From positions 1 through 37,111 of the forward strand of contig CAZZWJ010000001.1 of the NCBI GenBank assembly GCA_964657875.1: 37,111 bases of DNA. Direction: 5' to 3'. The stretch is from an uncultured Solirubrobacteraceae bacterium. GTDB taxonomy: Bacteria; Actinomycetota; Thermoleophilia; Solirubrobacterales; Solirubrobacteraceae. Under the pieces are notes generated by a model that was not told where the DNA came from, ran no database searches, and worked only from the letters and a program-made list of their open reading frames with translations. The translations under genes were made by a program, and so were the position numbers. Every line of letters begins with the position of its first letter. The first letter of the stretch is position 1. Positions 7,233 to 24,399 of the stretch are shown here, in pieces.

Positions 7233-7268
7233 GGAGTCCTCCTCGTACGTCGGTTGGGTTGCGCACGG

Positions 7269-8051
7269 CTACACGCTCGTCCAGCCGCCGTCGACTGCCA
7301 GTACCTGTCCGGTCACATAGGAGGACGCGGAGCTCACCAGGTACAGCACGGCGCCGTCGAGCTCGCCCTCCCGCCCACGGCGGCCGAGCGGCGCACGCCG
7401 CGCGACCCACTTCTCGCCGCTCTCGGAGGCGAACATCTCCGCGGTCATCTCCGTCTCAAACCAGCCGGGAGCCAGGCAGTTGACGCGGATGTCGTGTTGC
7501 GCCCACTGGGCCGCGAGCTCGCGGGTGAGGTTGACGAGCCCGCCCTTGGACGCCGCATAACCGGCCTGGGGAATCTGCCCGCATCCGCGCAGACCGAGGA
7601 TCGAGGCGACGTTGACGATCACGCCCCCGTCCCCATGGTCGACCATCGCCTGTGCGACGGACTGCGCGACGGCGAACTGAGCGGTGAGGTTGGTGGCGAT
7701 CACGTCGGAGAACCGCTCAAGAGATTCCTCGAGCGCCGGGCCGGAGTCGATTGTGCCCGCGTTGTTGACGAGCACGTCGACCCGCCCGAAGTGATGCTCG
7801 ACCGTGCGCATCGCCGCCGCGACCTCGTCCTCGCAGCGAAGGTCGCACGGCACGGGCAGGGCGTCGCGCAGACCCCCGCACAGCTCCTCGAGTCGCTCGG
7901 CGCGCCGGGCCAGCGCCACCACGCTGGCCCCCGCGCCGTCCAGGACTCTCGCAAAACGGGCGCCGAGTCCGGAGCTTGCGCCGGTGACCACTGCCACCTT
8001 TCCATCGAGTCGAAAAGCCGCCAGTGGATCCAGTCGATCCGGTACGGTCAC
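7269..8051 (-). CDS. Short-chain dehydrogenase/reductase
   Basis: TGASSGLG, NNAG, YAASK, IRVNCLAPG, VDGG; GTG start at 8051 after GGAGAAGG. Confidence 0.93.
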   Translation of the reverse strand: MTVPDRLDPLAAFRLDGKVAVVTGASSGLGARFARVLDGAGASVVALARRAERLEELCGGLRDALPVPCDLRCEDEVAAAMRTVEHHFGRVDVLVNNAGTIDSGPALEESLERFSDVIATNLTAQFAVAQSVAQAMVDHGDGGVIVNVASILGLRGCGQIPQAGYAASKGGLVNLTRELAAQWAQHDIRVNCLAPGWFETEMTAEMFASESGEKWVARRAPLGRRGREGELDGAVLYLVSSASSYVTGQVLAVDGGWTSV

Positions 8052-8128
8052 GTTACCCTTCTCCCTGATCGTGGCCAACGTAACCTGTGCACCGGTGGCA
8101 CGGGGTGAAAGCGGGTATGAACACCCAC

Positions 8129-8500
8129 ATGGCAAAGGACAGCACGACTCCAATCTGGCGGACGGTATTTGATGCCGTCGAGGGACCGCTCACCCGGGCC
8201 GCAGAGTCACGGGTGCAGACCAACCGCTTCATGGACGGGCTCGCGCTCAGCTGGCGCGTGCAACGGCGGCTCGACCGGGAGCTGCGCCACGGCCTGGAGA
8301 TGTGGCTGGGTGCGCTCTCGCTCGCCACGCGCGGCGACGTGGAGCGACTCTCCAACGAGGTCGCCCGCGTCGAGCGCGAGCTGCGCGCGCTGCGCCGTGA
8401 GCTCGAGCGCGGACGCACGGGACCCGGCACCCGCGCCCCCGCGCGCCCGCGCGCGAGATCAGCCAGTGGGGGTCGCGCCCGACAGCGCGACGGCAGCTGA
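8129..8500 (+). CDS. Small PhaE-like coiled-coil protein (putative PHA synthase partner subunit)
   Basis: LSLATRGDVERLSNEVARVERELRAL resembles the PhaE C-terminal LxLPTRxDV coiled coil; stop overlaps the phaC ATG; start could also be 8117. Confidence 0.65.
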   Translation: MAKDSTTPIWRTVFDAVEGPLTRAAESRVQTNRFMDGLALSWRVQRRLDRELRHGLEMWLGALSLATRGDVERLSNEVARVERELRALRRELERGRTGPGTRAPARPRARSASGGRARQRDGS

Positions 8501-9543
8501 TGGCTCCCGCCCCGCTTGAGCGCCACCTGCTGAGGGTCCGCAATTCGCTCGTCCACCACGCCGGGCTGCAGCGCACGCCGGTCGGTCGCTCCGCGCGGGA
8601 GCTGGCCTGGAGGCGCGACACCGCACGGCTGTGGCGCTATCAGGCGTCGGGGGAGCGCGTGGGACCCCCGATCGTGATCGTCCACAGCCTCATCAGCAAG
8701 AGCTACGTGCTTGACCTGCTGCCCGGCACCAGCCTGATCGGCTTCCTGCTCGACGAGGGGTTTGATGTGTTCCTGCTCGACTGGGACCTCGCCCGGCCCG
8801 CCGACGCCGAGAACACGCTCGAGAACTACGTCGAGGACTACCTGCCGGGAGCGCTGGCGGCGGCATGTGTGCTGGCCGGCGCCGACGACGTGACGCTCAT
8901 GGGGTACTGCATGGGCGGAGTCCTCGCGCTGCTGTACGCCGCCGCCGGGACCGAGCCCCCGGTGCGCAACCTCGTGACCCTGACGACGCCGTGCACCTTT
9001 GCGCCGATGGGCTTCATGAGCAACATGTTCCTCGAAGGGCGCCTGGATCCCGATGATGTCATCGACGCGACGGGCCTGGTCCCGGCCGAAGTCATCGACG
9101 CAGGGTTCTGGCTGCTCAAGCCCACCGACGACATCGTGCAGTCGGTCAACGTCTGGGAGCGGGGCTGGGACTCGCGCTGGCTGGGTGGCTTCAGCGCGAT
9201 GAATCGCTGGGCGCGTGACCAGATACCGTTCCCGGGGGCGGCCTTCGCGCAGGTCGTGCAGACGCTGATTCGAGACGACGCGCTCGCCTCGGGCGTCATG
9301 CCCCTGGGTGGTCGCGACATCCGCCTGGCCGACATAAAAGCGGCCTTCCTCAACGTCTTCTGTCGCGACGATCAGCTCGTGCCGCCCGATGCGGCGCGCC
9401 CGCTGAGCGGACTGGTGGGGGCCGGTGACGGCGACGAGCTCGAGCTGGACTCGGGTCACGTCGGGTTGGTGGCGGGGAGCGCCGCACGGCATGCGCAGCC
9501 GCGAATCGCCGAATGGATCCATGCTCGCAGCGACGATCACTAG
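8500..9543 (+). CDS. phaC: Class III-type poly(hydroxyalkanoate) synthase PhaC
   Basis: 347 aa; SLISKSYVLDLLPGxS, GFDVFLLDW, Cys lipase box GYCMGG, conserved W (NRWARD), D (DDQLVP), H (GHVGL). Confidence 0.85.
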   Translation: MAPAPLERHLLRVRNSLVHHAGLQRTPVGRSARELAWRRDTARLWRYQASGERVGPPIVIVHSLISKSYVLDLLPGTSLIGFLLDEGFDVFLLDWDLARPADAENTLENYVEDYLPGALAAACVLAGADDVTLMGYCMGGVLALLYAAAGTEPPVRNLVTLTTPCTFAPMGFMSNMFLEGRLDPDDVIDATGLVPAEVIDAGFWLLKPTDDIVQSVNVWERGWDSRWLGGFSAMNRWARDQIPFPGAAFAQVVQTLIRDDALASGVMPLGGRDIRLADIKAAFLNVFCRDDQLVPPDAARPLSGLVGAGDGDELELDSGHVGLVAGSAARHAQPRIAEWIHARSDDH

Positions 9544-10502
9544 ACGGCGGTGACGCGGGGTGGCCGTGAGAAGCTCCGCACCCACGCGCTGAGCAGCGCC
9601 GCCGGGTTGTCCCACCCGGGCGGGTGCGCGGCCAGGACCCGCTCGAGCATCTCGTCATCGACATCGATTCCGTCACGCCAGGCCGTCGAGGAGGCGACCG
9701 TGGAGGCGCTGATGAAATCGCCGATGAACGGCAACGCCGCACTGTCGTGGTCCATGAGCAGCAGGTGCCCCTCGCCGGGGACGATCACCAGCCGGGCGTT
9801 GGGCATATAACGCCCGAGCAGGTATGAGTTGGGAAGCGGCATCACCGGATCGTCGTCTCCGCTGATGACCAGCGTCTCGGGTGTTACGGCGCTCAGCCAC
9901 TTCAAGCTGCCCGGGCTCCCGGCGAGCGCCGCCAGCTGTGCGCAATATCCATACGGGGTCGGAGGGTGGCGCAGTCGGGCGTCGCCGTGACGACGCACGA
10001 AGCCCGGATCATCGCGCGCACGACCCCCCATCAAGGTGCCGATGACCCTCTCGTAATAGGGGCGCCAGTAGTAACGCAGTGGCGTCGACATCTGCGCGAG
10101 CGTCCACGGTGACCCTGGGACCCCGCCCCAACCGGGGGTCGTCCCGGCGAGCACCAGGCGCCGGATGCGTCCAGGGGCTCGACGGGCGAGGAACTGCGCG
10201 ACGAGGCCGCCGAACGAGTACCCCAGGACATCGACCTCGGCGTAACCGAGGCGGTCCAGCAGGGCCTCGGCAAGCAGGGCGAGGGAATCAAGGCCAAGCG
10301 GGAACAGCGGACTGGAGGAGCGGCCGGTGCCGGGCGCGTCGAACGCGATCACCCGGCTGCCGGGCACCGCCCGCTCGAGGCTGGCCCACATCTCCAGGTG
10401 GGCGCCGATGCCATTGATCAACAGCAACGGCCGCCCCTCGCCGGACTCGCGCACGTGCAGCCTCACCCCTGCGACCTCCACCGATCTCGCCTTCGCCGGC
10501 AC
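9540..10502 (-). CDS. Alpha/beta hydrolase, intracellular PHA depolymerase (PhaZ)-like
   Basis: PLLLINGIGAHLE, FDAPGTGRS, GYSFGG nucleophile elbow, GDDDPVMP, GHLLL; adjacent to phaC; GTG start at 10502 is approximate. Confidence 0.8.
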   Translation of the reverse strand: MPAKARSVEVAGVRLHVRESGEGRPLLLINGIGAHLEMWASLERAVPGSRVIAFDAPGTGRSSSPLFPLGLDSLALLAEALLDRLGYAEVDVLGYSFGGLVAQFLARRAPGRIRRLVLAGTTPGWGGVPGSPWTLAQMSTPLRYYWRPYYERVIGTLMGGRARDDPGFVRRHGDARLRHPPTPYGYCAQLAALAGSPGSLKWLSAVTPETLVISGDDDPVMPLPNSYLLGRYMPNARLVIVPGEGHLLLMDHDSAALPFIGDFISASTVASSTAWRDGIDVDDEMLERVLAAHPPGWDNPAALLSAWVRSFSRPPRVTAV

Positions 10503-10525
10503 CCGTTCGAGGCTATCGGGGTGCG

Positions 10526-11707
10526 CTAGCGCAGCGCGGCTTCCGAGCTCTGCGCCTCGGGTGCCTCCTCGGCTGCGGGCTCGACCGCCACCTCGGGCTC
10601 GATGGCCTGGGGGTCGCGCAGGCCCGGGAGCCCATAGGACTCCAGGTAGACGACGTAGAAGAGAATCCACAGGACCAGCCAGTCCATCCAGCCCAGCGGG
10701 CTGCCGTATATCGAGCCGACGACGACCGGCTCGCCGAGGATGTGTGGGGCGAGCACGTAGGAGTACAGAGCGAAGGTTCCGATCCCGAGCGCGAGCGTCA
10801 ACACGACGCGCACGAGGTAGTTCACCGCCTGGCTGAAGCCGGTCGGGCGGTTGTCGAACACGTTGGCCCAGATGATCATCCAGAACACCCAGCAGACGCC
10901 GATCTGCGCGGGATATTCGTTGAAGTTGACGCCGAGCAGCGCCTTGGTGTGGCTGCCGAGGATCGCCTCGACGAGCAACCGAAGGACGAAGTACAAGCCG
11001 ATGCCGACGACGATGTTGCCGACGAGCGAGGCGAGCGCCTGCCCGCCTCCCGCCCCGGCCAACCGCCACGGCCAGTTTTCGATGAGCAGGCCGGTGACGA
11101 CCGCGACGATGATGATGGAGTACACGACGCCGATCGTCGTCGGGATGTTGAGCAGCACGTGACCCGGCTTCGCCCAGGTCTCGAGGTTCGGCAGCGCGAA
11201 CAGTGCGTAGAGGACGACGGTCGGGCCGGTGACCGCGCCGATCTCGGCAATGCCCACCCACGGCTGCGCGAGACCCTTGTGGCGCCACGGCCAGTGATCC
11301 CAGTTGATCACGACCGTCAGGTAGGTGAAGAACCCGAACAGCACGAACAGCGCGGCGAGAAAGAAGCCGTTGCCCATCTTCACCCCACTGGAGAACGCCG
11401 GGTCGAAGTGGCCCCAGCCCTCGAACAGATAGGAGATGCCGATCGCCAGCCCGACGGTGACGCCGATGAGCGTGAGGCCCTTGAGCGGTTGGCGCAGCCG
11501 GTCGAACCAGTGGAACTCGAGGTTGAAGCCGAAGAACACCACCATGAGGATGGCCCAGAAGAGCATCTCGTCGAACGGCTCGGGGTAGGTGAAGACGACG
11601 CTTGTCTTCGGATCGACGAGCAGGAACCAGAAACCGAGCGCCAAGCCGCATACCACGACCAGGTTGGCCAGTCCAAACCAGTACCAGGGAACCGTCTTCG
11701 ATTTCAT
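10526..11707 (-). CDS. Uncharacterised polytopic membrane protein (~10-11 TM, Trp/Phe-rich); possible permease
   Basis: ATG 11707 with GAGAGGTGG RBS; many hydrophobic segments; repeated WDHWPW / IENWPW / FDNRP motifs; acidic tail. Confidence 0.8.
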   Translation of the reverse strand: MKSKTVPWYWFGLANLVVVCGLALGFWFLLVDPKTSVVFTYPEPFDEMLFWAILMVVFFGFNLEFHWFDRLRQPLKGLTLIGVTVGLAIGISYLFEGWGHFDPAFSSGVKMGNGFFLAALFVLFGFFTYLTVVINWDHWPWRHKGLAQPWVGIAEIGAVTGPTVVLYALFALPNLETWAKPGHVLLNIPTTIGVVYSIIIVAVVTGLLIENWPWRLAGAGGGQALASLVGNIVVGIGLYFVLRLLVEAILGSHTKALLGVNFNEYPAQIGVCWVFWMIIWANVFDNRPTGFSQAVNYLVRVVLTLALGIGTFALYSYVLAPHILGEPVVVGSIYGSPLGWMDWLVLWILFYVVYLESYGLPGLRDPQAIEPEVAVEPAAEEAPEAQSSEAALR

Positions 11708-11946
11708 GGCGTCCACCTCTCTCCCGCAGCTCGGCACCGTGTGACCATGACACTGTCGCAAAGGTCAGGGTGCACGAAGACGTCTCCGTGTCACTTGCCG
11801 CGACCGGTCATGGAATACCTCTCAGGTCCGTCTCCGGACCGTCCTCTCAGCAACTGATCATCTGCGCCGGCGCCCCCGCCGTCAAGAATGTGTCGACCCG
11901 TCGCAGAATGTGCAACGCGCCGACGATTAGGCTTGATGTGTTGTGG

Positions 11947-11973
11947 TTGACGCGGGGACGGTTGGGTTACACT
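11947..11973 (+). promoter_or_regulatory. Possible sigma70-type promoter of the lyase-ligase operon
   Basis: TACACT (-10-like) at 11968-11973; TTGACG at 11947-11952, but the spacer is only 15 nt. Confidence 0.35.
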
Positions 11974-12023
11974 CATGCTCGAGTAGGCGGTGCAACCGCA
12001 GACGCGACGGCTGGGAGGGTGAG

Positions 12024-13763
12024 ATGGGCTCAGAAGGTTTCGAGCCGGTGGCGAACATCGTCGCGCGGTTCCTGAGAGGTCGCGGGATCGACCGCGTGTT
12101 CGGGCTCCAGGGTGGCCATATCCAGCCGATCTGGGATCAGCTGGCACGAGGCGGCGTGCGGATCGTCGACGTGCGAGACGAGGGCGCCGCGGTGCACATG
12201 GCCCATGCCCATCGCGAGTTGACCGGGGAGATGGGCGTGGCGATGGTGACCGCCGGGCCCGGGGTGACCAACGCGGTCACCGCGGTCGCCAACGCCTCGG
12301 TGTCGCGGATCCCGCTGATCGTGATCGGGGGGTGCCCGCCGCGTCCTCAGGCGAATATGGGCCCGCTGCAGGGCATCCCGCACGTCGAGATCCTGAGACC
12401 GATCACGCGCGGCGCGCGCACGCTCGGCGTCGCCGATCAGGTCCTGCGCGAACTCGATGAGGCGTGGGCGCGCGCCGAGGGCGACCGCGGCGAGCCCGGT
12501 CCGGTGTACATCGAGATCCCGACCGACGTCCTGCGCCAGGAGGTCCCGGCGGCCCTCATCACCGAGGAGCATCTGCGTCCCAAGCCTCGCCGGCGGCCGC
12601 GGCCCGAGCCCGACGAGGTGACCGCGGCGGCGGCGCTCGTGGGCGGGGCCGAACGTCCCGTCGTGATTTCCGGTCGCGGTGCGCGCGTGGCCGGTGGCAC
12701 CGAGCTGATGCGCTTCCTCGACGCCTCGGGCGCCGCCTACCTGGATACCCAGGAGAGCCGCGGTCTCGTTCCCGACGACCACCCATCGGTCGTGGGATCC
12801 ATGCGTTCGCGCGTGATGCGCGAGACCGACCTGGTGATCACCGTCGGCCGCCAGCTGGACTTCCAGCTCGGGTTCGGCTCACCGGCCGTCTATCCCGAGG
12901 CGCGGTTCGTGCGGATCGCCGATACGGCCTCGGAGTTGATCGACAACCGTCGCGGCGAGGCTGAGCTGCTCGCCGATCCAGGGGCCGCGCTCGACGCCCT
13001 CGTGCAGGCGCTCGACCGCCAGGGCTCCAACGGGTCGGCCCAGCGTGCGTGGCTGCGGGAGCTGCACACCGAGCATCTGCGCAAGGCGGCGGAATACCGG
13101 GAGGGGCTCACCGAGAGCCCCGCCGGCGACGACGGGTTGATGCACCCCAACCGGATCTTCGATGCGATCGCGCGGGCCGGTCTCGAGGACGCGGTGATGA
13201 TCGCCGACGGGGGTGACTTCCTGAGCTTCGCACGGCTGGCGATGCGTGGCTGGCGCTATCTGGACGCCGGGGCGTTCGGGTGCCTTGGAGTCGGCGTGCC
13301 GTTCGGTATCGCAGCCGCGCTCGCCCATCCCGAGCGTCCCGTGATCGTGGCGACCGGCGACGGTGCGTTCGGGATCAACGCCATGGAGATCGACAGCGCG
13401 GTGCGTCATGGCGCGAAGATCGTCGTCCTGGTCGCCAACAACCGCGCCTGGAACATCGAGCGCTATGACCAGCTGGAGAACTACGGCCTGGTGGCGGGGA
13501 CCGAGCTCGGTGACTGCGACTACGCGGCGATGGCGCGCGGTCTGGGCGCGCATGGCGAGCGAGTCACCGAGCCCGGCGAGCTGGCCGGCGCCCTGGAGCG
13601 GGCGGTTGCGGCCGCCCCGGCGCTGGTCGATGTCGTCGTGACGCGGGACGCCCCGTCGCCGGACGCCGGCAAGGGCCTGGGCTTCGTGCCTGACTTCCAG
13701 GCGCTCACGCCTTGGGACGAGAAGGAGATCGAACGGCGCGAATCAACCGCGCCGGTTGGGTAG
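12024..13763 (+). CDS. ThDP-dependent enzyme, 2-hydroxyacyl-CoA lyase (2-hydroxyisobutyryl-CoA lyase-like)
   Basis: [33 protein letters not shown]...NN ThDP motif, [24 protein letters not shown], all matching my recollection of the Actinomycetospora chiangmaiensis lyase; GGGAGGG RBS. Confidence 0.85.
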
Positions 13764-13784
13764 CGGCAATCGAGGGAGAGACGG

Positions 13785-15422
13785 GTGCGCTCGTATACCA
13801 AGCTGACAAACGAGGTGAAGGACGGCTGGACGATCGGACAGATGCTCAGCCGGCAGGCTCGCGAACGGCCAGACGCGCCGGCGCTTCAGTGGCAGACCGA
13901 TGAGCCACTGTCCTACGGCGAGCTCCACGAGCGCTGCCGACGGGTCGCGGGAGGCCTGCGCTCCCTCGGCGTGCAGCCGGGCGACAAGGTGCTCATCATG
14001 TTGCCCAACCGGCTGGAGATCGTCCTGTCGTGGTTCGGCGTGACGCTGCTCGCAGCGGTCGAGGTTCCGGTCAACACCGCCTACGAGACCTCCTGGTTGG
14101 CGCACGAGGTCAACGACTGCGGCGCCGAGATCGCGATCGTGGACGCGGAGTTCCTCGAACGATTCGAGAGGATCAGTGATGATCTCGAGCAGCTGAAGAC
14201 GATCGTCGTGGTCGGCGATGGCGCGGATGGCGGTGCCCGCACCGAGGGTCTCGATGTCCACGCCTGGAGCGAGCTCGTCGAGGCGGAGCCGATCGACGAG
14301 CCGGAGGAGACCCACTTCAACGACGTGATGGGAATCCTCTACACGTCCGGGACCACCGGCCCGTCGAAGGGCGTGATCGTGCCCTACGGGCTGAGTGGGA
14401 TCTTCGCTCAGGCGGTGATCGACTCAGCGCAGCTGACCGACGAGGATGTCGCGTACGTGTGTAACCCGTTGTTCCATGGCAACGCCCAGTTCATGCAGGT
14501 TCTGCCGATCATGCTGTGCGGCGGTCGGGTGAGCCTCTGGCCCAAGTTCAGCGCGTCCCGGTGGCTGTCGCAGATTCGCGACTGCGGCGCGACGATCACG
14601 AACACGATTGGAGTCATCCTCCAGTTCATCCACGGCCAGGAGCGCCACGACGACGACGCCGACAATCCGCTGCGCCGGATTCTGGTGCAGCCGGCGCCGA
14701 AGGACATCGTCGAGGACTTCGAGGAGCGCTTCGGCGTCACCTGCCTTGAGGGCTACGGGATGACCGAGATCGGTGTCGTGACCTACCGTCACATGGACGA
14801 CGAGCTCAAGCCTGGAGCGGCCGGCAAGCCGATCGATGAGTGGTTCGAGGTGCGGATCGAGGATCCGGAGACGGGCGAGCCGCGGCCGGCGGGCGAGCCG
14901 GGCGCGATCGTGGTGCGCCCGAAGTCGAGCGGAATCCTCATGCAGGGCTATCACAACCTGCCGGAGAAGACGCTCGAGAGCTGGCGGGAACTGTGGTTCC
15001 ACACCGATGACGTCGCCATGCTGGACGAGGACGGGCACCTGATCTTCGCCGATCGCGCGAAGGACATGATCCGGCGGCGTGGAGAGAACATCTCCTCCTA
15101 CACGATCGAGTCCAACGTCCAGGAGCACCCGGCGGTGAGCGAAGCCGTCGCGTTCGCGGTCCCGTCGGATCTCGGCGAGGGATCCGAGGACGAGGTGAAG
15201 ATCTGCGTCATCCTCAATGACGGCGAGGACGTCGCCCCGCAGGAGCTCCACGACTTCTGCGCCGAGCGGATGCCCATGTTCGCCGTTCCGCGTTTCATCG
15301 AGTTCCTCGAGGAGATTCCGCGGACCCCGACTCGAAAGGTCCGCAAGAAGGAACTGCGCGATCGCGGGATCACCGACGAGACCTGGGATTGCGAGGCGGC
15401 CGGGGTGGAGGTCGGCAACTAG
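13785..15422 (+). CDS. ATP-dependent acyl-CoA ligase, CaiC (crotonobetaine/carnitine-CoA ligase)-like
   Basis: YTSGTTGPSKG, PLFHGNA, FSASRW, FEERFGV, YGMTE, DRAKDMIRRRGENISS, PRTPTRKVRK; GGGAG RBS. Confidence 0.9.
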   Translation: MRSYTKLTNEVKDGWTIGQMLSRQARERPDAPALQWQTDEPLSYGELHERCRRVAGGLRSLGVQPGDKVLIMLPNRLEIVLSWFGVTLLAAVEVPVNTAYETSWLAHEVNDCGAEIAIVDAEFLERFERISDDLEQLKTIVVVGDGADGGARTEGLDVHAWSELVEAEPIDEPEETHFNDVMGILYTSGTTGPSKGVIVPYGLSGIFAQAVIDSAQLTDEDVAYVCNPLFHGNAQFMQVLPIMLCGGRVSLWPKFSASRWLSQIRDCGATITNTIGVILQFIHGQERHDDDADNPLRRILVQPAPKDIVEDFEERFGVTCLEGYGMTEIGVVTYRHMDDELKPGAAGKPIDEWFEVRIEDPETGEPRPAGEPGAIVVRPKSSGILMQGYHNLPEKTLESWRELWFHTDDVAMLDEDGHLIFADRAKDMIRRRGENISSYTIESNVQEHPAVSEAVAFAVPSDLGEGSEDEVKICVILNDGEDVAPQELHDFCAERMPMFAVPRFIEFLEEIPRTPTRKVRKKELRDRGITDETWDCEAAGVEVGN

Positions 15423-16224
15423 GCCGGCGCACGGCCGGCCGCCGGCCGCCGGCGCCGAGCTCGCGCGTCACGGTCAGGAGCGCCCGCTCGACATGCTCAC
15501 GTTCAGTCGCGAACTGGGCGCGGGTCATGCTCACGCCGAGCGCGGCGACCGGTCGCCCGTCCGGGTTGCAGACCGGCGCCGCGAGCGAACCGAAGCCGAC
15601 GTCGTACTCGCAGCGGTCGGTGGCCACGCCGCGTTCGCGCACGAGGGCCAGCTCGTCGCGCAGCCTGCCCGGGTCGGCGATGGTGCGCGGGGTGAAGGAT
15701 CGCAGCCCGTGCCGCTCCACCCAGTGCTCAAGGCTCGCCGCGTCCAGCCCTGCGAGCAGCAGCTTGCCGATCGACAGTGCATGCGCGGTGTGGCGGATGA
15801 GCGGCTTCTCGAGGTTGCCCATCCGGGGCAGGCCCTGACGCCCGATGTCCCGCACGAGGGCAACCCCGTCGACCGAGAACATGCCGATGCACGTGCGGCG
15901 TCCCGTGCGTTTGAACACCTCGCGCATCCCGTCCTCCAGAAGACGCTCCGCATCGGGCATCAGGGGGGCGGGCTCCTCGGGCGCGGGCGCAGGCGCCCCG
16001 GGCTTGTCGACGATCAGCCGGTAGCGCCCGGCACGCCCGACCCGGGCGATGAACCCCTCGGCCTCGAGGCTGGCCAGGAGGTGGTAGGCGGTGGAGCGGC
16101 TCTTATCCAGGTAGCGCGCAATCTCCTGCGCCGAGACGCCGCGGGGATTCTCTGCGATGTAGGAGAGCACGCACAGGACCGCTCGGGCGGTGCTCAGTCC
16201 GCGATCCCGGGTGACGCTCGACAT
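15370..16224 (-). CDS. IclR-family transcriptional regulator
   Basis: HTH EIARYLDKSRSTAYHLLASLEAEGFI; effector domain HALSIGKLLLA, FTPRTI, ELALVRERGVA, SLAAPV. Confidence 0.92.
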   Translation of the reverse strand: MSSVTRDRGLSTARAVLCVLSYIAENPRGVSAQEIARYLDKSRSTAYHLLASLEAEGFIARVGRAGRYRLIVDKPGAPAPAPEEPAPLMPDAERLLEDGMREVFKRTGRRTCIGMFSVDGVALVRDIGRQGLPRMGNLEKPLIRHTAHALSIGKLLLAGLDAASLEHWVERHGLRSFTPRTIADPGRLRDELALVRERGVATDRCEYDVGFGSLAAPVCNPDGRPVAALGVSMTRAQFATEREHVERALLTVTRELGAGGRRPAVRRPSCRPPPRPPRNPRSRR

Positions 16225-16233
16225 GGACGCGCC

Positions 16234-17316
16234 TCACGCTCCGATGCCGGCCCGGCGGCAGGCCTCGGTGGCCAGTTCAGGGACGCCGGCGGCCATCTGG
16301 GCGAACCACGGGTCGCGCTCGTTGCCGGCCTGGAAGCGCTGATAGCTCTGCTCAAGAAAGATCGCGGCCTTCCACAGCGCGAGCACCTCGTACCAGCGAA
16401 GGTGCTCGATCGAGCGTTCGGTCAGCTCGGCGTAACGCGCCGCCAGCTCGTCACGGTCGGGGAACCCCGGCTCGCGGGTGACCGCCTGGATCTCGCTCAT
16501 CACGGTCGGCGCCGCGTCCCGAGCCGCCCAGTGCGCGGTGAGGTAGCCGAGGTCTGCGAGCGGATCCCCGACGGTGGCCATCTCCCAGTCCAGGACGCCG
16601 AGCAGGCGAACCGGAGGCTCGGCGCCGAAGATCAGATTGCCGATGCGGAAGTCACCGTGCACAACCGTCGACGGTGCGGGTGGCGGGAGGTGATCCCGCA
16701 GCCACCGCGTGGTCGCCTCCAGCTCCGGCAGCTCGCGCATGCGCGCGCGCTCCCACAGATCCTCGAAGCGGCGCAGCTGTCGCTCGAGATAGCCGTCCGG
16801 CTTGCCCAGATGCGCCAGCTCGCGCCGCGCGGGCCAGTCGATCGCGTGCAGCGCCGCCAGGGCGACGATTGCCTGGTGCGCGATCTCCGCGCGCCGCGAC
16901 GGGGTGGCCAGGGCCTCGGGGGTGCGCGTGCCGAGCACCACCCCGTCCAGGTACTCCATGAGGTAGAACGGCGCCTGCAGCACCGACAGGTCCTCGCACA
17001 CGGCAATGATCCGCGGCACCGGGATCTGCGTGCCCGCCAGACCTCGCAGCACGCGCGCCTCGCGCAGCACGTCATGGGCCGACGGTGGAAGCGGAGGCAG
17101 CGGCGGGCGTCGCAGCGCCACGCGGGCGTCGCCGCGCTTCACGAGGTAGGTCACGTTGGAATGACCACCGATGAGCCGTGTCGCGGTGACCGGGCCGGAT
17201 CCGAGCCCCTCGCGATCGAGGTAGCCCTCGAGGCGATCGGTAGCCAGCAGCAGCGCGTCGCCCTCCTGCTGATCGACCACGCCTGCGGCCGGATCTGATG
17301 CTGCGCCTCGGCTCAT
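16234..17316 (-). CDS. APH-like phosphotransferase (ACAD10/11 kinase domain / LvaA-like)
   Basis: GGHSNVTY, LRRPP, SAHDVLRE, PFYLME, GKPDGYLERQL, VHGDFRIGN, LDWEMATVGDPLADLG. Confidence 0.9.
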   Translation of the reverse strand: MSRGAASDPAAGVVDQQEGDALLLATDRLEGYLDREGLGSGPVTATRLIGGHSNVTYLVKRGDARVALRRPPLPPLPPSAHDVLREARVLRGLAGTQIPVPRIIAVCEDLSVLQAPFYLMEYLDGVVLGTRTPEALATPSRRAEIAHQAIVALAALHAIDWPARRELAHLGKPDGYLERQLRRFEDLWERARMRELPELEATTRWLRDHLPPPAPSTVVHGDFRIGNLIFGAEPPVRLLGVLDWEMATVGDPLADLGYLTAHWAARDAAPTVMSEIQAVTREPGFPDRDELAARYAELTERSIEHLRWYEVLALWKAAIFLEQSYQRFQAGNERDPWFAQMAAGVPELATEACRRAGIGA

Positions 17317-17448
17317 GCTCTCCCTCCTATCGCCCGGGCAACCTCACCTGACCGAGCGTTCGCCCGGTACCTAACGAGCGCTCACCACGGTAGCAAAACG
17401 GCGGATGCCGTCAAGCCGCCACCGCCCGGCGCTCGCCATGACGGCGCC

Positions 17449-18162
17449 TCAGGACGCGGAGTGCAGTGGCGGACGGGCCGCGAGGAGAGCGTCGAGCTTG
17501 GCCTCGACGCGGTCCAGCTGGCTCGCGCCGGCGATGGGCAGGTGCGTCTCCTGCCCGCGGACCGGGGACTGCGGCCCCTCGGCGACGCCGTTGAGGTAGA
17601 CGTCGAGCAGCACGCGGCCGATCTGCTCGGGTGCCAGATCGCCATCGGGGTGGTACCAGAAGATCGACCAGTTGAGGGTGTTGAGCAGCGACAGGGTCAT
17701 CCATTTGGCGTCGAGGGAGGCGCGCAGTCGCCGGTCCTCCTGGGCGGCCTCGACGAGTCGCCGGATCCGCGTCTCGTATTCGGCGCGCGCACGGCGGACC
17801 ACCGCATGGCTCTCCGGCGAGAGCGCCCGCATCTCGATCAGCATCGTGGCGTGCATGTCGGCGTTCTCGAGCGCCGAGGCCACGTGGGCGATGACCGCGG
17901 CCTGCAGGCGGGCCATCGAGTCCGTGAGCCCCTCCAGGGCCACCGTGACCGCTGCGTCGATGCGCGTGAGGCTCTCGACGCACAGCTCGAGCAGCAGCGC
18001 GTCCTTGCTGTCGACGTGGTGATAGAGCGCGGCCTTGGTGAGTCCGAGCGAGTCCGACAGTGCTCGCGTGCTGGTGCCCGCGTATCCGTGATTGCGGAAC
18101 AGCCGCGCCGCTTGGACCAGCAGGCGCGCACGCGTCGTCTCGGTGGGTGTGAGTGCCGTCAA
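17449..18162 (-). CDS. TetR/AcrR-family regulator (KstR2/PaaR-like C-terminal domain)
   Basis: AARLFRNHGYAGTS, LGLTKAALYHHVDSK, LNWSIFWYHPDG; start uncertain (TTG 18162 or ATG 18210). Confidence 0.9.
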   Translation of the reverse strand: MTALTPTETTRARLLVQAARLFRNHGYAGTSTRALSDSLGLTKAALYHHVDSKDALLLELCVESLTRIDAAVTVALEGLTDSMARLQAAVIAHVASALENADMHATMLIEMRALSPESHAVVRRARAEYETRIRRLVEAAQEDRRLRASLDAKWMTLSLLNTLNWSIFWYHPDGDLAPEQIGRVLLDVYLNGVAEGPQSPVRGQETHLPIAGASQLDRVEAKLDALLAARPPLHSAS

Positions 18163-18411
18163 CGATCGACAATTCAAGCACGCAGGCCCGCGGATGACGG
18201 TGATTCGCATCGCGACGAACGCGTCGCGGAGAGACTGCTTTTCACATACTGCGACACCGTCCACGGAACTTGACGTCACTGGCGTGGGAGGGAATCATCA
18301 GGCCCTCGGGAGAGGACTCATCGGTCGACGAGACGCTGCGGCGATCCCTTCGACCGGCCGGTCCTGAGGCTTCCGTTGGCGCGATCGTCCAGACCAGAGG
18401 AGAGAGTCCAG

Positions 18412-19926
18412 ATGTCGCAGTTGCTCACCGTCGACACCAATGCCCGCACCGTCGACCATGTCCAGATGCTCATCGGCGGCCGGTGGTGTGCCGCCGCCAG
18501 CGGCGCGAGCTTCCCGGCCCTCGACCCGAGCACCGGGCGCGAGATCGCCGCCATCCCGCGCGGCGACGCCGCCGACGTCGATCGCGCCGTCGCCGCGGCC
18601 AAGGCGGTGGCGGTCGAGTGGCAGTTCACCGACGCGATCGCGCGGGCGGCGCTGTTGCGTGGCCTCGCCGGCCTGGTGACCGAGAACGCCGACGAGTTGG
18701 CGCACCTGGAGGCGATGGACTCCGGGCACTATCTCTCCAAGGCCCGGGAGCTCATGGGCGCGATCCCGATCTGGCTGGAGTACTTCGCCGGGCTGGCCGA
18801 CAAGGTCGGTGGGCGCACGATCGAGGTTCCGGGCAACAAGCTCGACTTCACCCTGTTGGAGCCGCTCGGGGTCACCGCCCATATCGTGCCCTGGAACTAC
18901 CCGCTGCTGATCCTCGTGCGCTCCACCGCTCCGGCGCTCGCCCTCGGTAACACGTGTGTCGTCAAGCCCGCCGAGCAGACCTCGCTGTCGGCGATCAGGT
19001 ACGCCGAGCTCGTCCAGGAGGCCGGCTTTCCCGACGGCGTGTTCAACGTCGTCACCGGATTGGGCCCCGAGGCCGGCGCCGCCCTTGCCGCGCATCGCGA
19101 CGTGATGGGAATCACGTTCACCGGATCGGTCGAAACCGGCAAAGAGGTCGCCAAGCTCGGCGCCGAACACGTCGCTCAGGTCAATCTCGAGCTCGGCGGC
19201 AAGAGTCCGACGATCGTGTTCCCCGACGCCCGCCTCGACGACGCGGTGGAGGGGGCGGTCCAGGGCTTCTGCTCCCATGCCGGTCAGGTGTGCGTGGCCG
19301 GGACGCGGCTGTTCGTGCACCGCGACATCCAGGACGCGTTCCTGGAGAAGCTCGTCGCGCGCCTGGACTCCGCGAAGATCGGTGACATCTACGACGAGGG
19401 CACCCAGATGGGTCCACTCGTCTCCAAGGAACAGCTCGAGCGCGTCCAGGAGTACATCGAGATCGGCAAGCTCGAGGCGACGCTGCACTACGGCGGCGGC
19501 CGGCCGGATGGGGCGGACGAGGGCGGCTACTTCCTCGAGCCGACGGTGTTCACCGACGTCTCCAACACCGACCGCATCGCCCGCGAGGAGATCTTCGGCC
19601 CCGTCGTCTCAGTGATCCCGTGGTCAGACGAGGACGAACTGCTCGCGCAGTGCAACGACTCCGACTTCGGTCTCTACGCGGTCGTGTGGACCCAGGACAT
19701 CACCCGGGCGTTGAACATGGCCCGCCGCTTGCAGACCGGTGGCGTGATGATCAACGACTGGTTCGGGGAGCTGCCGATGAGTCCGCACGGTGGCTACAAG
19801 CAGAGCGGCACCGGCCGCGAGGAGGGGCTGGAGACGATCGCCAGCTACACGCAGGTCAAGCACGTCAGCGTCAACCTCGACCCGTCCCCGCGTGACAGCG
19901 CCGACTGGGCGAGCGCCCCGCTCTGA
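18412..19926 (+). CDS. NAD(P)-dependent aldehyde dehydrogenase
   Basis: PWNYP, KPAE, FTGS, LELGGKSP, GQVCVAG catalytic Cys, EEIFGPV, GGYKQSGTGRE; GAGGAG RBS. Confidence 0.96.
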   Translation: MSQLLTVDTNARTVDHVQMLIGGRWCAAASGASFPALDPSTGREIAAIPRGDAADVDRAVAAAKAVAVEWQFTDAIARAALLRGLAGLVTENADELAHLEAMDSGHYLSKARELMGAIPIWLEYFAGLADKVGGRTIEVPGNKLDFTLLEPLGVTAHIVPWNYPLLILVRSTAPALALGNTCVVKPAEQTSLSAIRYAELVQEAGFPDGVFNVVTGLGPEAGAALAAHRDVMGITFTGSVETGKEVAKLGAEHVAQVNLELGGKSPTIVFPDARLDDAVEGAVQGFCSHAGQVCVAGTRLFVHRDIQDAFLEKLVARLDSAKIGDIYDEGTQMGPLVSKEQLERVQEYIEIGKLEATLHYGGGRPDGADEGGYFLEPTVFTDVSNTDRIAREEIFGPVVSVIPWSDEDELLAQCNDSDFGLYAVVWTQDITRALNMARRLQTGGVMINDWFGELPMSPHGGYKQSGTGREEGLETIASYTQVKHVSVNLDPSPRDSADWASAPL

Positions 19927-19950
19927 GCAAGCGCAAGGAGGAGAAGAAAC

Positions 19951-20604
19951 GTGAGTGCCAATGACACCGAAACCGCCCCGGAGCCGTTCGGGGCCAGACA
20001 GACCGATCCCGATCCGCGTCTGACCTGGCGCAACGAGAGGGCTCGTCTGGGCGGGTATCTGCCGGGAGCCGAGTTCAACGATCGACAGGTGGCGGTGCTC
20101 AATGCCGCCGCGGACACGATGATCCCCCCGGGCAACGGGTTTCCGGCGCCAAGCGAGGTCGATGTCGTCGACTTCTGCGCGCGCTACGTCACGCCCGCCG
20201 ACCGCGAGCTGAAGTTCTTCCCGCTCGCCGCCGAGACCGACTTCAAGGCGCAGTTGGACGATCTCGGTCAGGCCTTCATCGACGGCTCGGCGGGTGAGCG
20301 CGCCGAGAAGCTGACCGCGCTCGAGAGCGAGGACGCGGAGGGCGGGGGGTTCTTCACCCAGCTGCGGGCGCTCGTCTACTACGGCTACTACGCAAGCCCG
20401 GTCGTGACCGAGGCGATCCGTCAGAACCTGCCCGCGGCCCACGACTACCACGGGCCACCTCAGCCCTACGGCTACGTCGGCAAGGTCGAGCCCTGGCCCG
20501 AAGGCGCCTGGGAGAACCCCAACGGAGGGTACGTGGCAACCGAGGACATCGTCCGAATCGACATCCCTGATGACATCAAAGCCGAATACGGAGTGCAGTC
20601 ATGA
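19951..20604 (+). CDS. Gluconate 2-dehydrogenase subunit 3-like small subunit
   Basis: LNAAADTMIP...PAPSEVDV and FFTQLRALVYYGYYASP; coupled (ATGA) to the GMC gene; AAGGAGG RBS. Confidence 0.75.
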   Translation: MSANDTETAPEPFGARQTDPDPRLTWRNERARLGGYLPGAEFNDRQVAVLNAAADTMIPPGNGFPAPSEVDVVDFCARYVTPADRELKFFPLAAETDFKAQLDDLGQAFIDGSAGERAEKLTALESEDAEGGGFFTQLRALVYYGYYASPVVTEAIRQNLPAAHDYHGPPQPYGYVGKVEPWPEGAWENPNGGYVATEDIVRIDIPDDIKAEYGVQS

Positions 20605-22310
20605 CCTTCCACACGAATGGGGACAATGGATCGGGTGCTGACAGCACCGACGTCCTGATCATCGGCTCCGGGATGAGCGGAGCGGCGTTTGCCAACCGGC
20701 TCTGCGCGGCCGGGATGAAGTGCACGATGCTCGAGCAGGGTGACTGGATCCACCCGACGATGTATGACCACTACCACGATGAGTTCGACATGGAACGCAA
20801 TCGTGGCTGGTCTTATGACCCCAACGTCCGCCAGGGTCCCGAGGACTACCCGATCACCGGAATCACGACCCCCTATCTGATCAACGCCGTCGGCGGCTCG
20901 ACGATCCACTATGCCGCGCACTGGCCGCGCTACAAGCCGATCGATTTTCGCAAGGGCACCGAGCACGGCCTGGCGGGCAACATCGATTGGCCCATCACCT
21001 ACGAGGACCTCGCGCCCTGGTACGACATCAACGACGCGGAGGTCGGGATCTCGGGCGTGCACGGGGACCCGGCATACCCGCCCCGCCCCAATGCCCCGCG
21101 CCAGAAGCCGATCAACCCCGGCAAGCTCGGCCTCAAGTTCGCCAAGGGCCTGGACCATCTCGGCTGGCACTGGTGGCCGTCTGACAACGGGATCATCACC
21201 GAGGACAAGGACGGGCGACTCCCCTGCAACGAGTGCGGCAACTGCCTGCAGGGCTGTCCACGCGGATCGCTGGCCGGCATGGACGTCAGCCTGCTTCCCA
21301 AGGCTCTCGCCAACGGCCTGGATCTGCGGGTCAACGCGCGGGTGGCCCGTATCGAGGCGAAGGACGGGAAGGCGACGGGCGCCGAGTACATCGACCGGAT
21401 CACCGGCGAGCATCACTTCATCTCGGCGAAGATCGTGATCCTCGCCGCGAGCGGCATCGGCACGCCGCGGCTGCTGCTGATGTCCGCGCAGAACGGCCAT
21501 CCGGACGGCCTGTGCAACGCCAACGGTCTCGTCGGCACACACCTCATGCACCACTCGTTCGCGTTCGTCGACTGCTGGTTTGACGACCCGATCCAGGGTT
21601 ACAAGGGCGCGTTCGGAGCGCCCCTGTACTCACACGAGTTCTACCACTCCGATCCGAGTCGCGGATTCGTCAACGGCATGGCGATGCAGGTCGGGCGAAG
21701 CTTCGGCTCGGCGTACACGGCGATGGGCACCCACACCGCGAACATCGCTCCCTGGGGTGAGGGGCATCGCGACTTCTTCGACTCGCACTTCGCGCACCAC
21801 CTGCTGGTGTTCATGTTCGGCGAGGACCTTCCGGTGAGGGAGAACGCGGTCACCCTGGACCCCGCGGCCAAGGACTCCGACGGGCTGCCGGCCGCGCACA
21901 TCGAGTTCAACCCGACCGAGAACGACCGACGGCTGGTGGACTTCGGCATCAAGCGGATCAACGACGTGGCCGATGCCCTCGGCGCGACGGAGACCAACAA
22001 CACCGGGGTCCTCTCGCCACCGCCGGCGTGGCATCTCATGGGTACCGCGCGGATGGGCAACAGCCCCGAGGACTCGGTCGTCAACATGTACAACCAGACC
22101 TGGGAGCTGCCCAACCTGTTCATCGCCGACGGTTCCTGCCTGACGACGGGTGGAGCTGTCAATCCGACGAGCACCATCGGCGCTCTCTCCACGCGGGCCG
22201 CGGAGTACATCAAGCAGAACTACCAGGAGATCGTCGACCAGACGGTGACGCCCTCCAACAGAGACGCGCCCTCCCTGGCGACGACCAACGAGGCTCTCGC
22301 CCTGGCGTGA
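20601..22310 (+). CDS. GMC-family FAD oxidoreductase with Fe-S-type Cys motif
   Basis: IIGSGMSG FAD motif, VGGSTIHY, DWPITYEDLAPWY, CNECGNCLQGC, TPRLLLMS, HLMGTARMG, NPTSTI. Confidence 0.93.
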   Translation: MTFHTNGDNGSGADSTDVLIIGSGMSGAAFANRLCAAGMKCTMLEQGDWIHPTMYDHYHDEFDMERNRGWSYDPNVRQGPEDYPITGITTPYLINAVGGSTIHYAAHWPRYKPIDFRKGTEHGLAGNIDWPITYEDLAPWYDINDAEVGISGVHGDPAYPPRPNAPRQKPINPGKLGLKFAKGLDHLGWHWWPSDNGIITEDKDGRLPCNECGNCLQGCPRGSLAGMDVSLLPKALANGLDLRVNARVARIEAKDGKATGAEYIDRITGEHHFISAKIVILAASGIGTPRLLLMSAQNGHPDGLCNANGLVGTHLMHHSFAFVDCWFDDPIQGYKGAFGAPLYSHEFYHSDPSRGFVNGMAMQVGRSFGSAYTAMGTHTANIAPWGEGHRDFFDSHFAHHLLVFMFGEDLPVRENAVTLDPAAKDSDGLPAAHIEFNPTENDRRLVDFGIKRINDVADALGATETNNTGVLSPPPAWHLMGTARMGNSPEDSVVNMYNQTWELPNLFIADGSCLTTGGAVNPTSTIGALSTRAAEYIKQNYQEIVDQTVTPSNRDAPSLATTNEALALA

Positions 22311-22879: not shown

Positions 22880-23401
22880 ATGAGGCTGACACGACGCAGC
22901 CGGTCGCAGTTCGAGGAGTTCGCCGCGGCTCACGGGGCGGGCCTCGTGAAGCTCGCGTTCGTCGTCTGCGGCGATCATGAGCAGGCTCAGGATGCCGTTC
23001 AGGAGGCGCTCATCCGCGTCTACGAGCGGTGGCCGCGGATCAGTGATCCGCTCGCCTACGCCCGCCGGTCGGTCGTCAACGCGACGCGGGAGGACTGGCG
23101 GCGCGATCGGCGCTCAGACCGCCTGCATCGTGAGATGGCGGACCTGCCGGTCGGCGGTGAGTCCAACGACCCGCAGGACCGCGTGCCGCAGCGCGACGCG
23201 CTGATGGCGGCGTTGGATGCGCTGCCCCACGCCCAGCGTGTGGTCGTCGTACTGCGCTACGGCATCCAGCTTTCGGAGGCCGAGACCGCCTCCACCCTCG
23301 ATATCCCGATCGGCACGGTCAAGAGCCGCGTCAACCGCGCTCTCGGGCGGTTGCGTGAGGTTCTCGACGCCGAGATGGTCACTTCAATCACGGAGAAATG
23401 A
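22880..23401 (+). CDS. ECF RNA polymerase sigma factor (SigE-family)
   Basis: FEEF, AQDAVQEAL region 2, AYARRSVVN, LPHAQRVVVVLRY, ETASTLDIPIGTVKSR region 4. Confidence 0.93.
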   Translation: MRLTRRSRSQFEEFAAAHGAGLVKLAFVVCGDHEQAQDAVQEALIRVYERWPRISDPLAYARRSVVNATREDWRRDRRSDRLHREMADLPVGGESNDPQDRVPQRDALMAALDALPHAQRVVVVLRYGIQLSEAETASTLDIPIGTVKSRVNRALGRLREVLDAEMVTSITEK

Positions 23402-24399
23402 GCATGATGAACGACAGCGATCTGCTTCACGAGCTGCAGGAGGGCATGCGTGAGCGTGCCGAGTGCATCGACGTTCCAGACGGGCTGGCCTTCGAGGCCC
23501 GCCGCGCGGTGCGGCGCCGGTCCGCCGGTCGTGCCGTGATCACCGGCGTGCCGGTGCTGGCGGTTGCCGGCACGGCGACCGTGCTCGCGCTGGGCGGCGC
23601 CGGAACGTCGCACCCGGCCAGCGCGGGGCCGGGCGGGTCCGCCTCGTCGATCTCACCGGGGCTGAGCCCCCACGCGCAGGACACCGCCTATATCGTGCGG
23701 CGCGCCCGTACCCACCTGGCCCATCTCGCGGTCGCCGGCGAGGGTCAGGTCCTCGAGCAGACCGCGACACTGGACAACGGCACCGCCGATCACCCCGCCT
23801 CGAAGAACGTCGACTGGATGTACATCGACCCGCAGTCCGGGGTTGCCTACCAGCGCAGCGTGGACAGCTCGGCAGATGGCACCGATCTGCAGACCAACGC
23901 GCTCGTCACCACGCCGACCGATGGCAGCTTGCAGACGCAGGTCACGTCGCTGGACCCGTCCTCCAGCACGTACTTCACCTCTGACAGCGCGGTCTCGCAG
24001 TTCGTCAACTCCTCAGTGTCCGGCACGCAGCTGGGCATCAGGAGCACCGAAGAGCAGATCGCTCAGGCCCTGGGCGACGGTCAGGTCACCCAGGAGGGGA
24101 CCGCCACCGTCGACGGGCAGTCGACGATCGAGCTCTCGGTCGCGCCCCCCTCGCCGTCGACCAGCAGCCAGTCGGCGGACACCACGATCACGCTGTACGT
24201 GAATTCGCAGACCGGCCAGCCGGTGAGGGAGGTCGACGGATCAGCCGGGAACGCCACGACGACCCTGGACTGGCTGCCCACGACCGCCGCGAGCATCGCG
24301 CTCACCCAGGTCCAGATCCCGGCGAACTACACGCAGGTCTCCGGCCCCAAAACCGGCTACTGGACGTCGAGTGTCCCGCTGATCTTCCTCGGATACTGA
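23398..24399 (+). CDS. Putative anti-sigma factor (single TM, Ser/Thr-rich extracytoplasmic domain)
   Basis: ATGA-coupled to the sigma gene; short N-terminal domain, basic RRRS stretch, one TM segment, then a beta-rich extracellular domain. Confidence 0.7.
   Translation: MSMMNDSDLLHELQEGMRERAECIDVPDGLAFEARRAVRRRSAGRAVITGVPVLAVAGTATVLALGGAGTSHPASAGPGGSASSISPGLSPHAQDTAYIVRRARTHLAHLAVAGEGQVLEQTATLDNGTADHPASKNVDWMYIDPQSGVAYQRSVDSSADGTDLQTNALVTTPTDGSLQTQVTSLDPSSSTYFTSDSAVSQFVNSSVSGTQLGIRSTEEQIAQALGDGQVTQEGTATVDGQSTIELSVAPPSPSTSSQSADTTITLYVNSQTGQPVREVDGSAGNATTTLDWLPTTAASIALTQVQIPANYTQVSGPKTGYWTSSVPLIFLGY

Follow-up and report, generated by a model that had tools for sequence, protein, structure and literature searches.

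A CaiC-like acyl-CoA ligase predicted to take the place of 2-hydroxyisobutyrate-CoA ligase beside an AcHACL-type lyase in a Solirubrobacteraceae gene cluster

Gene content of the locus

We analyzed a 37,111-nucleotide stretch of DNA, here called the window (contig CAZZWJ010000001.1, positions 1 to 37,111, assembly GCA_964657875.1), from the genome of an uncultured Solirubrobacteraceae bacterium (G000, 92.7% complete). The analysis centered on a gene cluster that encodes a thiamine diphosphate (ThDP)-dependent enzyme and an acyl-CoA ligase. Judged by sequence, the first is an orthologue of the 2-hydroxyacyl-CoA lyase of Actinomycetospora chiangmaiensis (AcHACL). The second is predicted, with good probability, to represent a further ligase family that acts on 2-hydroxyisobutyrate (2-HIBA) and similar C4-C5 tertiary acids and is not orthologous to the canonical 2-HIBA-CoA ligase (HCL). 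The chemistry and the cluster type were already known; what is new here is the ligase that replaces HCL.

The cluster consists of two operons on the forward strand, lyase-ligase at 12024-15422, with a gap of 21 bp between the two genes, and aldehyde dehydrogenase (ALDH)-small subunit-GMC at 18412-22310. Genes for an IclR-family regulator, an APH-family kinase and a TetR-family regulator lie between them on the opposite strand, and a gene for a membrane protein is divergent from the lyase gene. The open reading frames (ORFs), the lyase motifs, the spacing and the divergent membrane gene given in an earlier sequence-only reading of this DNA were reproduced, and Pfam/NCBIfam confirmed the families that it had named for the neighbors. 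An assembly artefact is ruled out because the arrangement is repeated in a second assembly contig, L001 (99.7% identical across 13,415 bp, same gene order), and in G1023, a genome of the window's genus in which all cluster genes are present in the same order. L001 is filed in a metagenome-assembled genome (MAG) titled Burkholderia sp. despite its actinobacterial genes, and is probably mis-binned.

As described in PMC7176365, the cluster of A. chiangmaiensis DSM 45062 has the order GntR-lyase-HCL-MpdC (501 amino acids)-small subunit (220)-MpdB (550) and is induced on 2-HIBA; its Mim and formate dehydrogenase genes lie elsewhere, and it contains no formyl-CoA disposal gene. The window shares with it an orthologous lyase with the same pocket, a ligase directly behind the lyase, and ALDH, small subunit and GMC genes in the same order and of similar sizes (504, 217 and 569 amino acids). 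The genome likewise has acetone and formate genes outside the cluster. Judged by homology and gene order, the second operon thus mirrors mpdC-small subunit-mpdB of the published lyase-HCL cluster, so that the context is not as unfamiliar as had first been claimed. The window differs in its unrelated CaiC-like ligase, in having IclR and TetR rather than GntR, in its division into two operons and in the extra membrane protein.

The lyase

The lyase gene (12024..13763, forward strand) starts with an ATG preceded by GGGAGG. Its product scores 978 on NF058623 (cut-off 600) and 878 bits against AcHACL (PDB 7PT1), with the next family at 233 bits, and is ~70% identical to 7PT1 (403/574 columns, counted by hand on the alignment). 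With residues mapped by hand on the same alignment, the catalytic set of AcHACL, E493, Q128, H44, T88, Q41 and E65, corresponds to E479, Q116, H32, T76, Q29 and E53 of the window enzyme. The acyl-pocket residues Q41, G43, H44, E65, T88, L127, Q128, I492, E493, L566 and V569 are unchanged, including the size-limiting L127, I492, L566 and V569, and the C-terminal lid (564-575) is retained with one change. Among the positions checked, only R362K, a CoA contact, and Y572F, in the lid, differ from AcHACL. The roles of these residues are given in PMC8760513 and PMC13327070, according to which the pocket restricts substrates to C4-C5 tertiary acyl groups.

The earlier assignment as a 2-hydroxyacyl-CoA lyase rather than an acetolactate synthase is thereby upheld. 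An acetolactate synthase or an oxalyl-CoA decarboxylase (OXC) would have the fold in common and does give weaker family matches, but these stay far under their cut-offs (best 358 vs 587; OXC 231 vs 557), and the OXC entries of the E. coli and O. formigenes type in the PDB reach at most 167 bits. Either identity is very improbable, and both were rejected as all scores fell below cut-off.

The lyase was detected in three of 300 other genomes of the genus, and a GTDB scan returned, besides L001, only relatives of 60-65% identity. Among 79 such loci (L002-L080), mostly alphaproteobacterial, 75 have a third, long-chain-type ligase directly upstream of the lyase gene, one has HCL and three have neither; none of the 79 contains a GMC or small-subunit match. 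The pocket is identical in 11 aligned sequences of this group, while a Cupriavidus plasmid enzyme differs. This mostly alphaproteobacterial clade is widespread, with ~660 stretches matching the patterns. Two phylum searches (1/400 other genomes each) did not reach the canonical Actinomycetospora cluster.

A divergent lyase paralogue, with C at position 41 and an altered lid, adjoins 2-hydroxyisobutyryl (2-HIB)-CoA mutase genes in PM1, in Mycobacterium sp. ELW1 (48% identity) and in the genomes G006 (of the window's genus), G454 and G501. This uncharacterised enzyme was seen at L089 11579-13336, L105, L112, L091, L086 and L087, and it occurs together with the canonical lyase in G145, G503 and G504.

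A different ligase in the HCL slot

The ligase gene (13785..15422, forward strand) occupies the slot that HCL holds in the published cluster and is predicted to encode a 2-hydroxyisobutyrate-CoA ligase of 545 amino acids. Its start, GTG 13785, lies 21 bp past the lyase stop and is backed by an aligned ATG in G1023. The best family match is PRK06155 (NF004808; 491 bits, cut-off 722), and CaiC (NF005947) scores 274 against a cut-off of 651; the protein falls under every Pfam/NCBIfam family cut-off searched. The label CaiC-type given by the sequence-only reading therefore stands as a best match and fails as a family assignment. Unlike in the setting of CaiC, no carnitine-pathway genes were found near the window ligase.

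HCL (PDB 6HDW; PM1 WP_011831862, ELW1 WP_149383989) and the window ligase have the same slot, the same predicted reaction and membership in the ANL superfamily. HCL, however, is PaaK-like and ~465 amino acids long, and the window ligase gave no significant alignment with the HCL of G1011, another genome of the genus (E 0.078), no match with the PM1 or ELW1 HCL, and matches at E 1e-40 among which 6HDW was absent. The ligase had rightly been set apart from HCL, and the statement that characterised HCLs resemble phenylacetate-CoA ligases also held, as the best match of the PM1 HCL is TIGR02155. In the literature that we covered (most subscription papers and the supplements of PMC8760513 lay outside this coverage), we found no CaiC-like stand-in for HCL and no paper linking a 2-hydroxyacyl-CoA lyase with Solirubrobacter.

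Two genomes of the window's genus allow a direct comparison. G1023 carries the whole cluster with the same ligase (85%). In G1011 the order is that of the window, membrane gene, lyase (79%), HCL, IclR, TetR, ALDH (82%), small subunit (63%) and GMC (83%), and the gene behind the lyase encodes a 464-amino acid HCL (664 bits to 6HDW, 60% identical to PM1 HCL); no CaiC-like ligase orthologue was found in this genome (best 37%). HCL probably represents the ancestral state and the swap a later event, because the lyases of the window and of G1023 group together as sisters (FastTree 0.87) and that of G1011 falls outside them, because the AcHACL and L005 lyases accompany HCL, and because the window ligase branches among the ligases of another family, here termed f22. 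It is likely that HCL was exchanged in situ for a ligase derived from family f22 clusters.

The oxidation operon

The ALDH (18412..19926, 504 amino acids), the Gluconate_2-dh3-type small subunit (19951..20604, 217 amino acids) and the GMC flavoprotein (20601..22310, 569 amino acids) are all encoded on the forward strand. The ALDH is MpdC/IbcJ-like and a predicted 2-hydroxyisobutyraldehyde dehydrogenase. It is 68.5% identical to IbcJ of ELW1, to which the other ALDHs of G000 reach at most 42%; according to PMC13188929, the role of IbcJ was itself assigned by homology. The MpdB-like GMC protein is a predicted 1,2-diol dehydrogenase, with 63% identity to 550-amino acid Actinomycetospora GMCs, 65% to a GMC of M. 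vaccae and 42% to IbcH of ELW1, also a GMC. According to the same paper, ibc cluster 1 of ELW1 differs from the window in having an alkene monooxygenase and an epoxide hydrolase and in relying mainly on a B12 mutase. A quick IQ-TREE analysis of 32 rows placed the window GMC in a six-row clade (support 100) beside a ten-row clade (100) of Actinomycetospora and Mycolicibacterium 550-amino acid GMCs. From the length, the taxa and the Joint Genome Institute (JGI) labels, the latter clade is presumed to contain MpdB.

Ligase orthologues in other genomes

Apart from the one in G1023, orthologues of the ligase (60-73%) were found in eight of 104 family f22 genomes (G145, G503, G504, G454, G501, G493, G458 and G475), whereas one draw of 400 further genomes from the family of the window gave none (three candidates scored in each). 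Among named proteins, those of Rubrobacter come closest. A metagenome scan with the ligase alignment (3/64 parts), which was swamped by general ligases, gave one orthologous locus out of 80 (61%), on a contig that starts inside the gene.

The eight f22 orthologues and that of G1023, nine in all, lie within ~1 kb of an AcHACL-family gene. In G145, G503 and G504 the order is TetR-ALDH-DUF779-small subunit-GMC-lyase a-ligase-hydrolase-lyase b, and the GMC falls inside the presumed MpdB clade (76%). Where it was compared (G503, G504, G458), the hydrolase behind the ligase shows 39% identity to IbcK. In G454 and G501, lyase a-ligase lies 5-7 kb from hcmB-meaH-hcmA, with no hcl between hcmB and meaH, where PM1 and ELW1 have it. 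The mutase of both genomes is 65-66% identical to PM1 HcmA and has I90 and D117 as in that enzyme, residues which we take to be marks of 2-HIB-CoA mutases. An I90V mutant is named in PMC12025749. The contigs of G493, G458 and G475 are short and show neither mpd nor hcm genes. In G475, G504 and G501 (L104, L109, L112) the coding sequence of lyase a, of the ligase or of both is broken across reading frames, by decay or sequencing errors.

The neighboring genes of the window hence co-occur with homologues elsewhere, as a survey of G1023, G1011 and the f22 genomes showed, and this ligase type sits where HCL would be expected in HCL-free lyase and mutase clusters. An HCL orthologue was found in none of eight ligase-bearing genomes tested (G000, G145, G454, G501, G503, G504, G493 and G1023, 63-100% complete; G458 and G475 were left out), the best hits being PaaK-like proteins of 30-33% identity. 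These observations bear on a rival idea, in which the ligase is only carried along with the cluster or activates some other acid. The CoA ester for the lyase would then be supplied by a general ligase or a CoA transferase, or the lyase would run as a synthase that joins formyl-CoA and a carbonyl compound. Such a role would suit a ligase to which no characterised enzyme matched, in a genome that has other acyl-CoA ligases, family III CoA transferases and a glutathione-independent formaldehyde dehydrogenase adjoining its formate dehydrogenase. It is nevertheless improbable, given that nine of nine orthologues adjoin a lyase across two families, that the 21-bp spacing implies one operon and that HCL and the CaiC-like ligase are mutually exclusive in the genomes tested.

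Two f22 loci have further neighbors. In G493 (L102 13279-17021), genes for an FlK-type thioesterase and a sugar-type ABC transporter stand just upstream of the ligase gene and are candidates for a formyl-CoA thioesterase and for polyol uptake. In G145 (L089 3031-4616; L090), the cluster is bordered by an APH kinase and DUF6285 pair at one end and, at the other, by a Cox-like molybdo-hydroxylase set with an N,N-dimethyl-4-nitrosoaniline (NDMA)-dependent methanol dehydrogenase and MadBC.

Product disposal elsewhere in the genome

Contig C42 of G000 encodes an actinobacterial formate dehydrogenase (NF041513, 1887 vs cut-off 1400), with the formaldehyde dehydrogenase beside it. The lack of a formate or formyl-CoA disposal gene in the window, correctly seen earlier and common to the published A. 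chiangmaiensis cluster, is therefore no anomaly. The reading frame on C42 is open (1081 amino acids) with no in-frame TGA, unlike the reported selenocysteine formate dehydrogenases of A. chiangmaiensis. In G145 and G503 (L203, L204) the gene for the alpha subunit of formate dehydrogenase has an in-frame TGA, likely for selenocysteine. Formyltetrahydrofolate synthetase was present in 4/4 f22 genomes, with none above cut-off in G000; for the formyl-CoA transferase TIGR03253, 0/4 were above cut-off and none passes in G000. The default assumption, in line with the proposal for A. chiangmaiensis, is that general thioesterases would hydrolyse formyl-CoA.

For acetone, contig C46 carries a Mim/Prm cluster (MimD, NF045941, 167 vs cut-off 150) in the published order of reductase, amidohydrolase-sized ORF, Zn-dependent alcohol dehydrogenase and GroEL. 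Soluble diiron monooxygenase genes occur in 57 of 120 genomes of the genus, a tally that includes the unpublished genomes G937 and G903, and many have two clusters.

Membrane protein and promoter-like sites

The membrane gene (10526..11707, reverse strand) encodes a protein of 393 amino acids with no Pfam/NCBIfam match and belongs to an uncharacterised family. Its model is confident (predicted local distance difference test, pLDDT, 90.6) and has ~10 helices, with no Foldseek match at E 0.001 and no clear PDB fold; the best VIA Z, 8.7 (root-mean-square deviation 6.2, 228 aligned), is to a designed helical barrel and says neither that the fold is new nor that it is known. The automatic label 'AAT family amino acid transporter' finds no family profile or fold match to AAT/APC. 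At E 0.001 there are 160 relatives, the best named one coming from a Solirubrobacterales MAG (68%). The gene holds the same position in G1023 (78%) and G1011 (69%), and thus in three of three same-genus clusters, and was not found in the two f22 genomes checked (G145, G504). Of its relatives, only two are on plasmids: one is found 13 kb away from the hcm cluster of PM1, and the other is flanked by genes for acetoin reductase and 2,3-butanediol dehydrogenase.

Within 12.5 kb, only two sigma-70-like promoters were found (0.6 expected), one facing the membrane gene (11857..11915, reverse strand; box TTGCACAT-TC-TGCGAC, then TTGACG-17-GATGAT) and one facing the ALDH operon (18240..18298, forward strand; box TTTCACAT-AC-TGCGAC, then TTGACG-17-AATCAT). 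Both carry the box TT(T/G)CACAT-N2-TGCGAC, 14 bp ahead of CTTGAC. The box occurs twice in 3.06 Mb and not at all in three Markov simulations, a count that is partly circular as the pattern was drawn from these sites; the strict pattern occurs twice in G1023 and once in G1011. Because the membrane gene and the diol-oxidising operon appear co-regulated through this common box, we suggest tentatively that the membrane protein may be a diol or hydroxy-acid permease. The spacing of the box before TTGAC is activator-like, and a further copy lies in a ~600-bp insert between the ligase and IclR genes of G1023 (L217 near 12497).

Regulators and flanking genes

The IclR gene (15370..16224) also adjoins the ligase gene in G1023 and G1011, and the TetR gene (17449 to about 18180, start codon uncertain) adjoins the ALDH gene in these two genomes and in G145, G503 and G504. 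Between them lies the APH-family phosphotransferase gene (16234..17316), regarded as accessory; all three are on the reverse strand. G1011, where the kinase gene lies 4 kb away alongside HCL, weakens the notion that the kinase points to a different substrate.

Upstream, window positions 5655-10520 hold genes for a PRK08162-like acyl-CoA ligase, a short-chain dehydrogenase/reductase (SDR), a short helical ORF (8087-8500), a class III-like PhaC and a polyhydroxyalkanoate (PHA)-depolymerase-like hydrolase. Most of these also stand beside the G1023 cluster, and in G1011 they are rearranged and lack the SDR; PhaC adjoins the G145 cluster as well. PhaC relatives were found in 37/150 genomes of the genus versus 3/300 for the lyase, and the block was treated as a neighbor, not as part of the pathway. 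Downstream are an unannotated anti-sigma-like protein behind an extracytoplasmic function (ECF) sigma factor (23398-24399) and a 963-amino acid protein with a YVTN beta-propeller and a phosphoesterase domain (27170-30061, reverse strand).

Proposed pathway and alternatives

With a probability of roughly 0.7, we propose that the cluster breaks down 2-methylpropane-1,2-diol and other small tertiary diols of this kind via 2-hydroxyisobutyrate to acetone and formyl-CoA, the CaiC-like ligase doing the job of HCL. The membrane protein might import the diol or the acid. From homology and gene order, the GMC protein with its small subunit would oxidise the diol to the aldehyde, and the ALDH would oxidise the aldehyde to the acid. 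The ligase, from its position, is predicted to form the CoA ester, which the lyase, by strong homology, would cleave with ThDP and Glu479 (the E493 equivalent). Acetone would pass to the Mim monooxygenase (C46) and formate to the formate dehydrogenase (C42). The same sequence of diol, aldehyde, 2-hydroxy acid, CoA ester and carbonyl plus formyl-CoA had been put forward by the sequence-only reading and is judged the likely route. We take 2-HIBA as the likely substrate because of the ligase slot in G1011, the MpdB-type and mutase contexts of the orthologues and the mutual exclusion with HCL.

That reading had also held that a different substrate is implied, which is largely unsupported, given the presence of a true HCL in the same cluster of G1011 and the unchanged size-limiting residues of the lyase. 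In a related form, the ligase swap may have shifted or widened the substrate range, mainly to C4-C5 tertiary acids that are hydroxylated or unsaturated and stem from the oxidation of isoprene or from branched polyols of plants. Cleavage of 2-methylglycerate, 2-hydroxy-2-methylbut-3-enoate and 2-methyltetrol-derived acids would then give formyl-CoA together with acetol, methyl vinyl ketone or hydroxyketones. According to PMC13327070, AcHACL binds (S)-2-methylglyceryl-CoA and turns over the C5 ester with better Km, and PMC7176365 proposes an isoprene-diol route for Rhodococcus variants. The separate clade of the window GMC, the ABC transporter of G493 (on the same strand as the ligase gene, with the thioesterase gene between) and the failure to find an isobutene oxygenase in G000 would also agree with such a shift. 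G1011, however, pairs the same GMC clade (83%) with HCL, so that GMC divergence does not track the ligase, and also has a kinase gene near its HCL-type cluster. Two genomes furthermore combine the CaiC-like ligase with an HcmA-type mutase. A shifted substrate is thus possible, though rather unlikely.

Several points weigh against the degradation of 2-methylpropane-1,2-diol via 2-HIBA. The conserved pocket alone does not fix the substrate, because the mostly alphaproteobacterial relatives keep it, in 75 of 79 loci with a third ligase type, and showed no mpd-type GMC or small subunit. No characterised family includes the ligase, and generic ANL-fold matches are all that its model (pLDDT 80) yields. 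The window GMC is sister to the presumed MpdB clade and not within it. The Mim cluster shows capacity, not linkage; it is permissive rather than specific because diiron monooxygenases are common in the genus. No IsoA-type isobutene oxygenase or IbcK-type epoxide hydrolase was found in G000, at its 92.7% completeness. In family f22 the ligase mostly stands behind the divergent lyase paralogue, whose specificity is uncharacterised, and the lyase/ligase genes of G475 and G504 are frameshifted. Three of the eight genomes without HCL are only 63-77% complete. Finally, the orthologue-bearing genomes are kin, representing about three lineages rather than ten, and the counts are not independent.

Biological meaning

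A more speculative thought is that the new ligase family, together with a new permease fold, retunes the route to natural polyhydroxy tertiary acids such as 2-methylglycerate or acids derived from 2-methyltetrols, which would come from the oxidation of isoprene or from the methylerythritol of plants. We consider this unlikely. If it were true, the cluster would be a soil sink for these compounds and would indicate the long-sought natural substrate of the AcHACL and 2-HIB-CoA mutase (HCM) pathways. In either case the membrane protein is a candidate transporter from a family without a known fold that recurs beside short-diol genes, and G1011 and the window form a natural experiment, one cluster with two ligases. 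A second ligase for tertiary 2-hydroxy acids would be of use for synthetic one-carbon and methacrylate-precursor pathways. If 2-HIBA is indeed the substrate of the window ligase, its activation arose at least twice, AcHACL-type lyases pair with at least three unrelated ligase families, and searches for hcl only would overlook lyase and mutase pathways in these actinobacteria.

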